Positions 3,093 to 59,841 of a stretch of DNA of 64,000 nt are shown here, one piece after another. The first letter of the stretch is position 1; each line of letters begins with the position of its first letter. Below the pieces are notes generated by a model. It worked only from the letters and a program-made list of their open reading frames with translations. It had not been told where the DNA came from and did no database searches. Origin of the DNA: Candidatus Omnitrophota bacterium (GTDB lineage: Bacteria > Omnitrophota > Gorgyraeia > Gygaellales > Profunditerraquicolaceae); the NCBI GenBank assembly GCA_041653955.1, contig JBAZEH010000005.1, positions 178 to 64,177 on the forward strand. The letters run 5' to 3'. The position numbers and the translations under genes were made by a program.

Positions 3093-3490
3093 TGGTGGAG
3101 GTGGGCGGAATTGAACCGCCGTCCCCGGACAATCACGTAAAAGCCGCTACATGCTTAGTTTATCTTTTATGCTTACTTCTGCCTGCTCCGGTAAACAGGA
3201 TAAGGCAGACAGCAGCCTTTTTTAATTTCACCCGCGCCCCAAAGGCTAATTTACACGGGCTATCCTGCTATCCGCTCTCGTTTAAGCCACAGGCAGCCTA
3301 AGGAGAGGCTTCGCTAATTTAGTTAGCGAAGACTGGTGCCAGACCCATACCCATTGTGATGGGCATCGGCTGGACGCTGAACAGTTGTCTGTTTGCGTTT
3401 ATCTTGTGCAAGGGTTGTTAACGCGGCTAACCTCGCATCCGCGACATGCTGCTCTTACCCGACTCATCCAGGTCGAGACCTTTCACCCCC
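3093..3490 (-). ncRNA. ssrA: tmRNA (SsrA)
   Basis: The minus-strand RNA starts GGGGGUGAAAGGUCUCGAC and ends with a tRNA-like T-arm and acceptor, GGUUCAAUUCCGCCCACCUCCACCA. The 5'/3' acceptor pairing is intact. It is directly adjacent to smpB. Confidence 0.85.
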
Positions 3491-54486: not shown

Positions 54487-55221
54487 CTAAATATATTGCA
54501 GCGCCCTTTTGATATCTTCGGATCTGGCTACCCTGACATCTTTCAGCGGGTACTCCAATCCAAGATACTCCCACTTATGCTTTCCGAGGGTATGATATGG
54601 CAGGAATTCAAAATTAGACGCGTGGCGAAAACCGCGGACCAGACTACCTAGCGCTTTTAAGTCCTTTTCTGTATCGTTGAGTCCGGGCGCAAGGACATAA
54701 CGTATCCAATACGGCTTTTTGTTCTCTTCAAGCAAATTAATAAAATCCAACACCTGCTTTAGGTCTCTTGAGGTAATACGCTTGTGCAGATCCTTGTCTA
54801 CCGACTTTATGTCTACAAGAAAAAGATCGGTTAACTCAAGAAGCGAAAACAGTTTATATTCATCCTGTGGGCGGTAAAAGGCGCCCGTGTCTATCGCGGT
54901 ATGCACGCCCCGTTCTTTACAGAGGCAGAATAACTCCTTCAGAAAATCCATTTGCAGCAATGGCTCGCCTCCGGAGACCGTTATGCCTCCTTTTGAGGAA
55001 ATAATATACGGCATGCACTTATCCAGCTTCCTGACAACCTGTTCGGCGCTCATCTGCCTGCCTGCCCTTTCATTCCAGGTGTCGGGGTTATGGCAATACA
55101 AACAGCGCGCCAGGCAGCCCTGCATAAAAAGCACAAACCTTATCCCGGGGCCTTCGTGCGTGCCGAACGTCTCAAAAGAATGGATATTCCCTATAACGGT
55201 TTTACTCTTACATGCTTTCAT
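54487..55221 (-). CDS. pflA: Pyruvate formate-lyase activating enzyme (radical SAM)
   Basis: CxxxCxxC ([14 protein letters not shown]). 244 aa. It overlaps the 3' end of pflB. Confidence 0.85.
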
Positions 55222-57418
55222 GGAATGTCCTTGCCAATACCTCTTTCTGCTGCTCCGTGGATAATTTATTAAAGTGCACCGCGTATCCGGATACCCTGAT
55301 GGTCAGCTGCGGGTATTTATGCGGGTTCTTCATAGCGTCCTCAAGGGTTTCCTTGTCAATCACGTTGACATTAAGATGGTGCGCCCCCTTCATGAAGTAG
55401 CCGTCAAGCAGTGATTTTAAATTTGACCTCCTGCTCTCATGGGTATTCCCCAGCGCTTCGGGGAGCGATGAGAAGGTATTGGATATCCCGTCGCGGCATT
55501 CCGTATAGGGGATAGCGGCCACTGAATTAAGGGACGCGATTATCCCGTTATCATCCCTGCCGTGCATAGGGTTTGCTCCCGGGGCAAAAGGCTCCCCCTT
55601 TTCTCTCCCGTCAGGGGTAGAGCCGGTCTTCTTGCCATACATAACATTTGAGGTAATAGTAAGGATCGATATTGCCGGGAAGGAATTCCTGTAAAGCTTA
55701 TGCTTCTTAAGCTCTGTAAGGAACAGGTTCACCAGGTCAACTGCCCTGCCATCGACCTTATCGTCGTCATTGCCGAATTTAGGAAAATCTCCTTCTATAT
55801 TAAAAGATGTGGTCAGGTTCTTCTTATTCCTTATGGCGCTCACCTTAGCGTAACGTATAGCGCTTAAGGAATCGGCCGCCACCGATAACCCGGCGATACC
55901 AAAAGCCATATAACGGGTAAGCTCGGTATCCAACAGGGCCATCTGGGCTCTTTCATAATAATAGGTGTCGTGAGAGCAATGGATGATATTCAGGGCTTCA
56001 ACATAGGTCTTCACAGTCCATCTTAAAACCTGCATGAACTTCTCTTTCACTTCATTGTGGTCTAAAGGATTTGATTTGATAGGCGCTATATCCGGGACTA
56101 CCTTCTCTCCCGTTATCTCATCGCGGCCTTCATTCAAGGCGTAAAGAAGCGCCTTGGGCAGATTGCAACGCGCCCCGAAATACTGCATCTCGCTCCCATT
56201 TTTAAGCAGGGATACACAGCAGGATATGCTATAGTCATCCCCTCCGATAAGGCGCATCATATCGTCATTTTCGTATTGTATAGAGCTGGTCTTTATAGAA
56301 ACATCCGCGCAAAAACCCTTGAATGGTTCAGGCAGGCGGCTTGACCAAAGCACGGTAAGATTGGGCTCCGGGGCCGGGCCCAGATTAAACAGTGTCTGGA
56401 GGAACCGGTATGAACTTCTGGTCACCTTGTGCCTTCCGTCTATACCTACGCCCCCTATACTTTCAGTGACCCAAACCGGGTCTCCGGCGAATATGTCGGA
56501 GTATGCTTTGGTGCGCAGGTGCCGGACGATCCTGATCTTTATCACAAAATCATCTATCAACTCCTGGGCTGTTTCTTCCGTAATGACCCCGCGCTTCAGG
56601 TCATTCTCAATATATATATCAAAGAAATTGCTCACGCTCCCAAGGCTCATCGCCGCGCCATCCTGTTCTTTTACGGCGGCAAGATAAGCGAGGTATACCC
56701 ATTGTATCGCTTCGCTTGCGTTTTGTGCTGGCCTTGAAAGGTCAAAACCATACATATTCCCCAAAGCAATGATATCTTCAAGGGCAGTGATCTGCTCGGC
56801 GATCTCACCCCTTAATCTTATAGCCTCTTCGGTAGAATAATCTTCAAGGGTCTCCTTGTCATGTTTCTTCGCCGCAATAAGTTTTTTGATACCGTAAAGC
56901 GCGACCCTCCTGAAATCACCTATTATCCTCCCGCGGGAGTAATTATCCGGCAGTCCTGTAATTAAACCGGTATGCCTGGCTTTTAATATATCCGCGGTAT
57001 AGGCATCAAATACGGCATCATTGTGGGTTTTGCGGTATTTGGTATATATCTCTTTTACTCTGGGGCTAAGCTTATAGCCGTAATCTTCACAGGCTGCCTC
57101 TACAAGCCTTATCCCGCCTAAAGGCTTGATAGCCCTCTTTAACGGCTCATCGGTTTGAAGGCCCTTGATCAATTCCAGCTTCTCATCTATATACCCCGGC
57201 TTATGGCTGGTTATGGTAGATACGGTTTCGGTATCTATATCATACACCCCGCCCCTCTTATTCTCCTCTTCAAATAGCTTCAGGCACTTATCCCACAGGG
57301 CTTTGGTCCTGGCTGTAGGCCCCTTTAAGAATGAACTATCACCGTCATAAGGAGTATAGTTCCTGTTGATAAAATCCCTTACGTCTATTGTCTTATCCCA
57401 CCTGCCTCTTTTAAACAT
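55208..57418 (-). CDS. pflB: Pyruvate formate-lyase (glycyl radical enzyme)
   Basis: C-terminal glycyl-radical motif [29 protein letters not shown] and active-site CC (SISCCVS). The start is set at the ATG at 57418 (MFKRGRW), preceded by GGGGGTG. The track ORF extends 24 codons further upstream. Confidence 0.9.
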
Positions 57419-57430
57419 CTTAACACCCCC

Positions 57431-57580
57431 TGCCCAGAAAGGGCGCACCCGGCAATCCAATAAGCCGAGGTGCCTATAAAAAGAAAACACCCGGGTTACA
57501 AAAACCCAGGTGTACGGTTTTCACTTCTTTTTAAGCGCTTCCTCATGGTTTCCCATGTTGACCACCAGTCGCGCTTCACC
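57431..57580 (-). promoter_or_regulatory. Candidate ZTP (pfl-motif) riboswitch in the pflB 5' leader
   Basis: The 5' subdomain is AGCGCGACUGGUGGUCAACAUGGGAAACCAUGAGGAAGCGCU, with P1 GCGC/GCGC enclosing GACUGG and a GGGAAACC hairpin, as in the pfl/ZTP consensus. About 75 nt downstream is a 3' subdomain-like CCGGGUGCGCC ... UGGGCA, directly before the RBS. The linker holds a stable hairpin with a U-run (57476-57512). Confidence 0.45.
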
Positions 57581-57594
57581 AAATTGTCATACTA

Positions 57595-59278: not shown

Positions 59279-59441
59279 AATGTTCTCTCGTTTTATTTTT
59301 TATGCTTATCTTAAGCAGCTTTAAATAAAACCTTCTTGCAACATATTATATCACAGAAGGATAAAATATAAAATTTAATCTCCGGATAATTCAGTTTTGA
59401 ACAGTAACCAATCCTTACTAAACTATCTCATCAAAGAATGA

Positions 59442-59469
59442 TAGCCCTACTCATATGAATAGGGCTACT
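59442..59469 (-). terminator. Putative terminator hairpin downstream of the intron-containing tRNA
   Basis: Palindrome TAGCCCTAC ... GTAGGGCTA, followed by a U-rich stretch on the minus strand. Confidence 0.35.
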
Positions 59470-59476
59470 CTAAGTA

Positions 59477-59797
59477 TGGCTCCCCCTCGAGGACTCGAAC
59501 CTCGGACCTGGTGGTTACAAGCAACCCGGAGTTACTCCCGGACCTGGACTATATCTTTGCCATGGCTTTCGCTTTAGGCAGCAGGTGCATAGTCTCTGAA
59601 CCTTCCCTGATTTCTCAAGGCTCGGCTGCTGATTACCCTCGCCTTTACGTTCGGGCTTCCAGCAATTCTCCTGCTTTTTCAACCGCGATTTCCCGCGGAA
59701 GCTGCCTTTATTCATCCCTCGCGCCCCTGCGCCCGGGACAAACCCCGCGTTCGCGGGATTTGACAGCCACTCGCTCTACCGACTGAGCTAAGGGGGA
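59477..59797 (-). tRNA. tRNA-Asn (GUU) gene interrupted in the anticodon loop (between positions 35 and 36) by a group I intron. Exons are 59763-59797 and 59477-59517.
   Basis: The 5' exon is UCCCCCUUAGCUCAGUCGGUAGAGCGAGUGGCUGU. The 3' exon is UAACCACCAGGUCCGAGGUUCGAGUCCUCGAGGGGGAGCCA. Joined, they give a 76-nt cloverleaf with U1-A72, G73 and anticodon loop CUGUUAA. The 5' exon ends in U, and the intron ends in G. Confidence 0.7.
59518..59762 (-). ncRNA. Group I self-splicing intron (~245 nt, no ORF)
   Basis: The core elements are GUUCAGAGACUA (P7 5' strand), AAGAUAUAGUCC (P7 3' strand), a P9 hairpin CCGGGAGUAACUCCGGG, and a terminal omega-G. A candidate internal guide sequence GGCAGC is complementary to the exon end GCUGU. 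Confidence 0.65.
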
Positions 59798-59841
59798 ATT
59801 TGAATATGTATTTTAACTGAAAAAACCTGCTAAATCAAGCC

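Follow-up and report, generated by a model that had tools for sequence, protein, structure and literature searches.

The stretch of DNA analysed here (64,000 nt in length, hereafter the window) contains a tRNA-Asn(GUU) gene on its minus strand, between positions 59477 and 59797, whose two halves are separated by 245 nt. This split gene had been proposed from the letters alone (hereafter the sequence-only reading), and its coordinates prove to be exact (Table 1). When the two exons are joined, ARAGORN assigns the 76-nt product to tRNA-Asn(gtt), with a cloverleaf carrying the anticodon GUU, a U1-A72 pair, G73 and an encoded CCA, just as had been read from the sequence; the single mismatch of the joined tRNA is A27.C43. 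U1-A72 and G73 are typical of bacterial tRNA-Asn and act as identity elements. Because default ARAGORN calls only a tRNA-Leu and a tmRNA in the whole window (and nothing at the split locus), no intact tRNA-Asn gene lies within these 64 kb, as the sequence-only reading had also noticed. Run with its intron option on the raw locus, ARAGORN wrongly reports Asp(gtc), with an intron of 225 nt and an incorrect boundary.

The split gene is flanked by a promoter-like site, which ends 12 nt upstream of tRNA position 1, and by a terminator-like hairpin. The gene order dnaX-recR-(ABC-F)-tRNA-Asn is common to the window and two other split loci, L086 (an Omnitrophota MAG) and L031, and the ABC-F protein of the window shares 75% identity with that of L086 and 71% with that of L031. 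Judged by these relatives, the window most likely derives from an Omnitrophota-like bacterium. Elsewhere in the window, a ZMP/ZTP riboswitch is found directly upstream of an ORF encoding 760 amino acids, which from its sequence may be a pyruvate formate-lyase-type glycyl radical enzyme. The tmRNA has a long insertion in its coding region relative to the Rfam model, and ARAGORN predicts an unusual tag of 25 residues for it (ANRQLFSVQPMPITMGMGLAPVFAN).

Table 1. Features of the split tRNA-Asn gene and other features mentioned in the text (positions are those of the window)
Feature	Position	Strand	Details
Promoter-like site	59810-59838	minus	TTGATT, 17-nt spacer, TAAAAT; consensus scan 9/12; pattern match only
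Exon 1	59763-59797	minus	35 nt; tRNA-Asn positions 1-35 (acceptor 5' strand, D arm, anticodon stem 5' strand, C32 U33 G34 U35); ends ...GGCUGU, ...GAGUGGCUGU
Intron	59518-59762	minus	245 nt; CAAAUCC...UUGCUUG; RF00028 match and covariation in 66 homologues
P1 5' strand	59762-59768	minus	Exon G30-U35 and intron C1; pairs with 59706-59700
P1-loop insertion	59715-59762	minus	Two GC-rich hairpins, 59762-59739 and 59738-59715
Internal guide sequence (P1 3' strand)	59700-59706	minus	GGCAGCU; GCAG in 66/66; directly 5' of P2
P2 hairpin	59683-59698	minus	CCGCGG-GAAA-UCGCGG; 6/6 pairs changed on both sides; 94% of cells paired
P3 5' strand	59670-59675	minus	AGCAGG; pairs with 59585-59580; 5/6 pairs changed on both sides
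P4-P5	59627-59664	minus	P4 UGCUGG/UCAGCA, P5 GCCC/GGGU, 14-nt L5; 89-98% paired, compensatory changes
P6 and P6a	59600-59626	minus	GAAA loop; 82-93% paired, compensatory changes
P7 5' strand	59590-59596	minus	GAGACUA with bulged A (guanosine-binding helix); pairs with 59551-59546; invariant in 66/66
P3 3' strand	59580-59585	minus	CCUGCU; only 4 nt (UGCA) after P7
P8	59559-59579	minus	GCCUAAAGC-GAAA-GCCAUGGC; outer 3 pairs covary; internal loop like the 11-nt GAAA receptor
P7 3' strand	59546-59551	minus	UAGUCC; preceded by J8/7 AAAGAUA
P9 hairpin	59525-59542	minus	UCCGGG-AGUAAC-UCCGGG, GUAA loop; 5/6 pairs changed on both sides
P9.0 3' strand and terminal G	59518-59521	minus	CUU (59521-59519) pairs with AGG (59545-59543); G is 59518
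Exon 2	59477-59517	minus	41 nt; tRNA-Asn positions 36-76 (U36 A37 A38, anticodon stem 3' strand, variable loop, T arm, acceptor 3' strand, G73, CCA); starts UAACCACC, ends GCCA
Terminator-like hairpin	59441-59468	minus	12-pair stem, T-rich tail, 9 nt past CCA; pattern match only
ZMP/ZTP riboswitch	57497-57582	minus	RF01750, 46.1 bits
760-aa ORF	55208-57490	minus	
tmRNA	3093-3490	minus	RF00023, 169.8 bits

The Rfam model RF00028 matches positions 59750-59525 (minus strand) over its full length (model positions 1-253), with a score of 61.4 bits (against a gathering score of 50) and an E-value of 3.9e-13. This match, framed by two tRNA halves, is far beyond chance expectation. The core elements on which the sequence-only reading had relied are all present: the motifs GUUCAGAGACUA and AAGAUAUAGUCC, a P9 hairpin with a GUAA loop, a terminal G, and a U before the 5' splice site. 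The intron has no open reading frame of its own. We drew the helices P1 to P9 by hand and then tested them against an alignment of homologues.

Homologues were collected by scanning one genome per species for a pattern in which the 3' strand of P7 is followed, after a gap, by GTAA and a T arm of the Asn type; this gave at least 120 loci. The split gene could be reconstructed at 106 of the 120 loci listed, and the joined exons were called tRNA-Asn(gtt) by ARAGORN, so that the split gene occurs in at least 106 species genomes. Among the matches listed these are mostly genomes of Patescibacteria, and Patescibacteria and Omnitrophota-like bacteria are the groups contributing most loci. All of the 106 split genes listed (106/106) have an exon 1 ending in CUGU, an intron ending in G, and an exon 2 beginning with UAA; the invariance of the G and UAA around the 3' splice site (terminal G in 106/106) and of the P7 3' strand is imposed by the search pattern, whereas GU at positions 34-35 and the guide GCAG are free of its constraint. 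The introns of these 106 loci range from 180 to 630 nt, 28 of them being 500 nt or longer. The search pattern also matches seven contigs of a viral collection (L245-L251, IMG/VR), including very long ones (543 kb and 170 kb). These contigs may belong either to large phages carrying the split gene or to bacteria of small genome size that were catalogued as viruses.

The hand-drawn structure was counted on an alignment of the 66 introns of at most 300 nt (alignment A1). Standard pairs fill 87.3% of the cells, compared with 35-43% in controls that shift the 3' partners by 1-3 columns; out of 54 pairs, 37 have changed on both sides, and none of 500 shuffles reaches the observed covariation score. 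Compensatory changes are found in P2, P3, P4, P5, P6, P6a, the outer part of P8 and P9 (e.g. P3 of L031 is a compensated version, UGUGGG/CCCACU). Among the matches listed, the closest introns (77-85% core identity) are those of L086, L010, L012, L031 and L062; L086, L010 and L012 are labelled as Candidatus Omnitrophota MAGs, and L031 was labelled Planctomycetales by an automated pipeline. Homology to the Patescibacteria members is clear from P2 to P7 (blastn E-values down to 1e-24), and the Patescibacteria intron tested by Nakagawa et al. 2026, mSystems (PMC13011429) is a more distant relative of the window intron, with a core identity of roughly 60-67% as estimated from members that resemble it. 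Three members (L010, L016 and L110; A1 columns 112-156) have an optional insertion of ~45 nt between J3/4 and the P4 5' strand, which starts with GUCC and can form a hairpin; it is absent from the window.

Both splice sites follow from the structure. The pairs U35.G, G34-C, U33-A and C32-G at the core of P1 are kept in all 66 aligned introns, and the 5' splice site lies after U35 (59763) because the invariant U.G wobble pair fixes it there. At the other end, the 3' splice site lies after 59518 because the terminal G directly follows P9.0, whose triplets covary within the six-member clade formed by the window intron and its closest relatives (AGG/CUU, GAA/UUC, AAG/CUU twice, ACC/GGU and GCU/AGU). 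A short-range alternative for P1, confined to the intron's first 25 nt (CAAAUCCC... with ...GGGGUUUG), was also considered and rejected because U35 would stand opposite U; that segment folds locally into a hairpin, and the conserved guide GCAGC is found 57 nt into the intron, directly before P2, where all homologues have it too. Exon 2 (UAACC) and the guide region were searched for a P10, but no more than a single G.U pair can form between them; pairing of the two exons in the anticodon stem probably stands in for P10 and keeps the exons together.

Taken together, these features very probably represent a stand-alone tRNA-Asn(GUU) gene of an Omnitrophota-like host, into which a self-splicing group I intron of 245 nt is inserted at positions 35/36. 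By analogy with the intron family, splicing in the host organism would proceed as follows. The end of exon 1, GGCUGU, would pair with the intron guide GCAGCU to form P1, with U35 in the U.G wobble at the 5' splice site, and a free guanosine held in P7 would attack after U35. The terminal G, placed by the 3-bp P9.0, would then take over the G site, and the freed 3'-OH of U35 would attack after the terminal G, joining U35 to U36 to give the GUU anticodon. The predicted junction is ...GGCUGU joined to UAACC..., and the ligated 76-nt product would read ...GGCUGUUAACC.... Among introns at this position, guanosine-dependent self-splicing in vitro is on record only for Patescibacteria homologues (PMC13011429), and the window intron would splice likewise. 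One Patescibacteria tRNA-Asn intron self-splices precisely at 35/36 in vitro, with the junction sequenced, and changing its terminal G to C blocks exon ligation, so that the mature tRNA is not made (PMC13011429).

The same two halves can also be joined two nucleotides earlier, as a tRNA-Thr(UGU) with an intron at 33/34 (exon 1 ending ...GGCU, exon 2 starting UGUAACC). This product folds as well and ARAGORN calls it tRNA-Thr(tgt); many homologous split tRNA-Asn genes have in fact been misannotated as Thr(UGU) by ARAGORN and tFind (PMC13011429, Table 1). We nevertheless consider a threonine tRNA extremely improbable here, because its intron would end in U instead of G and both P1 and P9.0 would be off the splice sites: the covarying P9.0 would no longer adjoin the 3' splice site, and the wobble U.G of P1 falls at U35, not at U33. 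The U1-A72 pair and G73 of the window gene fit bacterial tRNA-Asn, while bacterial tRNA-Thr typically has G1-C72 with A73 or U73. Uninterrupted genes with these arms read GTT, and the sequenced spliced products of homologues are joined at 35/36 (PMC13011429). The preference of the sequence-only reading for asparagine over Thr(UGU), and its placement of the insertion at 35/36, are thus borne out by P1, P9.0, the terminal G and the uninterrupted genes.

Such uninterrupted tRNA-Asn genes are common: at least 120 metagenome contigs carry one with the exact junction GGCTGTTAACCAC. The best of them among the matches listed is identical to the joined exons at 68 of 76 positions, and L128 has the whole anticodon arm as in the window, A27.C43 mismatch included. 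As uninterrupted genes with the same junction and arms exist, the predicted product is an ordinary bacterial tRNA-Asn. None of the uninterrupted metagenome matches listed (at least 120) is an intron-free allele with the window's flanking genes.

It could be argued that the intron is inactive and decaying, that this copy of tRNA-Asn is a pseudogene, and that an intact copy lies elsewhere in the genome. The homing endonuclease gene is missing, the P1-loop insertion is unusual, P7.1/P7.2 is absent, and our view is limited to 64 kb of the genome, so that a second copy is possible. We regard decay as very unlikely, however, since all core helices are intact and compensatory changes have occurred in the clade, a sign that the fold is under selection. 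The tRNA made by the exons is clean (its one mismatch, as seen above, also occurs in uninterrupted genes), the position of the gene after recR and the ABC-F gene is conserved in related genomes, and the interrupted tRNA-Asn gene tested in Patescibacteria is the sole copy in its genome (PMC13011429).

The P1 loop sets the window copy apart from its relatives that carry an endonuclease gene: in the window the homing endonuclease gene is absent, and two GC-rich hairpins stand in its place. This loop is a variable site. It has 4-10 nt in many members (including L086) and unrelated hairpins in the window, L010 and L012; L086 lacks the insertion of the window, and L010 and L012 have other ones. In L031 (7233 region, minus strand of the locus), L052 and L017 the loop contains an ORF of about 107 codons, whose last codons run into the guide sequence and P2 and which shows the pattern CxxC...HH...CANCHRELH; its match to the Pfam HNH family is weak (E-value 0.0045, 17.5 bits, under the cut-off of 21.4 bits). 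As to the hairpins of the window, no second copy of them was found in the 64 kb at up to 3 mismatches, so they are not a repeated element there. The minimum-energy fold of the isolated P1 domain has P1 capped by the two hairpins (-37.7 kcal/mol, z -4.05). We observed that the 3' strand of the first hairpin, GGGGUUUGU (59739-59747, minus strand), can pair with the guide GCAGCUUCC (59706-59698) like the exon strand does, and the RF00028 alignment took this pairing rather than that of exon and guide. The pairing of GGGGUUUGU with the guide could reflect chance, but it could also compete with the proper fold or mark a cryptic splice site, and the structured insertion of 57 nt in the P1 loop could slow the formation of P1.

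A second difference concerns the segment between P7 and the P3 3' strand. Since only 4 nt lie there, the window intron has no P7.1/P7.2, the extension that marks subgroup IA. The same UGCA is all that separates P7 from P3 in the five closest introns (L086, L031, L010, L012 and L062), whereas most other members, nearly all from Patescibacteria and, among Omnitrophota, L052 and L017 included, have about 45-55 nt; the Nitrospirota and Bipolaricaulota introns described in the accessible parts of PMC13011429 also carry the extension. The segment typically consists of UCCCGCAAGGGAGUA, a hairpin and GAAGCGCC, and we read it as a putative P7.1/P7.2, which the clade of the window intron has apparently lost. 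This clade has a GAAA loop on P2 together with a P8 internal loop identical or similar to the 11-nt GAAA receptor (exactly CCUAAG...UAUGG in L031 and L012; CCUAAAG...CCAUGG in the window), and the P8 internal loop would, from its sequence, act as the receptor. A third structural class in alignment A1 (e.g. L008, L014, L033, L036, L111 and L117) also lacks P7.1/P7.2; its J3/4-P4 region reads GGGAUAAC GGUGAA, with ...CGCCGUAGAGACUAGAUACC in addition. Within it, P2 helices capped by GAAA tend to occur with receptor-like P8 loops, and those capped by other GNRA loops with plain P8 helices.

Peripheral elements stabilise group I cores. The clade lacks one that its relatives have kept, and the intron might accordingly be functional but not autonomous, depending on a host protein or on unusual conditions to fold and splice. 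We consider such dependence unlikely, though less so than decay: the clade has the L2 GAAA loop and the receptor-like P8, and a core of 188 nt is not unusually small for a tRNA intron that splices itself. The combination of such a loop with such a receptor stabilises very small autonomous introns, e.g. that of Azoarcus. Self-splicing without a helper is the reading we retain.

The sequence-only reading had pointed to the IC3 subgroup for comparison. The compact build without P7.1/P7.2 agrees with this affiliation, but the nearest sequence relatives do not: the architecture of the window intron appears IC3-like, yet these relatives belong to the tRNA-Asn introns classed IA1. A tentative history, for which the balance of our judgement falls just short of even, is that an Omnitrophota lineage of the 35/36 tRNA-Asn intron descends from the HNH-carrying intron of the IA1 type that is common in Patescibacteria, lost P7.1/P7.2 and came to rely on the contact between the L2 GAAA loop and P8. 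If so, the IC3-like architecture may have been reached secondarily, and the HNH copies in L031, L052 and L017 may have been retained, which we hold with the same reserve. Endonuclease-bearing 35/36 introns would then extend beyond Patescibacteria, and the HNH-bearing Omnitrophota-like copies would argue for transfer between Omnitrophota-like bacteria and Patescibacteria.

The split gene matters for annotation. Standard tRNA finders miss or mislabel it, and therefore the genome would seem to be without tRNA-Asn and completeness estimates of Omnitrophota bins would be affected; the same problem has been described for Patescibacteria (PMC13011429). Should the genome have no other copy, the decoding of asparagine codons would depend on RNA self-splicing. 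For the evolution of the family, the locus adds a phylum and a natural variant without P7.1/P7.2. Its interest for the way in which small group I introns remain folded is modest, and it opens no new question.

An asparagine host with an insertion at 35/36 had been taken by the sequence-only reading for a new case, against four known host tRNAs, a list that is out of date: the number of known bacterial tRNA intron classes was raised from four to 21 by Williams 2020 (bioRxiv 10.1101/2020.01.27.920355). According to Nakagawa et al. (PMC13011429), one of these classes is 'Asn.4Ug', which tFind sometimes labels 'Thr.2Ug'. The combination of host and site was thus catalogued in 2020, has been spliced in vitro (PMC13011429) and, by our scan, occurs in at least 106 species genomes. 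Nakagawa et al. found 15 group I introns at 35/36 of tRNA-Asn(GUU) in 95 complete Patescibacteria genomes, and a wider survey of theirs, covering 4,934 complete genomes, gave 28 introns at 35/36, 19 of them in Patescibacteria and the remaining ones in Cyanobacteriota, Nitrospirota, Bacillota_A, Bipolaricaulota and Pseudomonadota. Out of these 28 introns 25 were classed IA (the tRNA-Asn family IA1), and HNH genes were found in four tRNA-Asn introns, all in Patescibacteria. The single Omnitrophota entry in the accessible parts of that paper is an IC3 intron at 33/34 of fMet, and the core strings of the window have no match among the Table S5 entries listed there. A full-text literature search for Omnitrophota together with group I intron gave no paper with either term in its title or abstract.

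With its insertion at 35/36 and its core homology, the window intron belongs to the published family and is a further example of it. What is mildly new is the Omnitrophota-like host, the clade without P7.1/P7.2 and the GC-rich hairpins that replace a small HNH gene in the P1 loop; the HNH-bearing relatives outside Patescibacteria are a modest extension. The window intron shares with Asn.4Ug and the Nakagawa family the host tRNA, the insertion site, the bases at the splice sites (CUGU before the intron, G at its end, UAA after it), the guide GCAG(C) and the order of helices, and some of its relatives have the same HNH endonuclease gene in the P1 loop as that family does. The Nitrospirota and Bipolaricaulota introns, as far as the accessible parts of PMC13011429 give them, have guide, P2 and core sequences as in the window. 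In contrast, the host is Omnitrophota-like, and Omnitrophota is a phylum that those parts, on complete genomes, do not list for a 35/36 tRNA-Asn intron, the clade is without the P7.1/P7.2 of the IA1 members, and the P1 loop is formed by two GC-rich hairpins, being neither short nor the site of an endonuclease gene. Compared with the IC3 introns of cyanobacterial tRNA-Leu(UAA), inserted at 34/35, and of Azoarcus tRNA-Ile(CAU), the window intron differs in host tRNA and insertion site, and its nearest relatives are not among the IC3 introns in the accessible part of Table S5. Like those of tRNA-Leu(UAA) and tRNA-Ile(CAU), it is compact, with P1 to P9 in order and without P7.1/P7.2, P2.1 and P5abc; its P2 is capped by GAAA, its P9 by a GNRA loop, and its P8 resembles the 11-nt receptor. 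In this architecture it resembles the Azoarcus intron.
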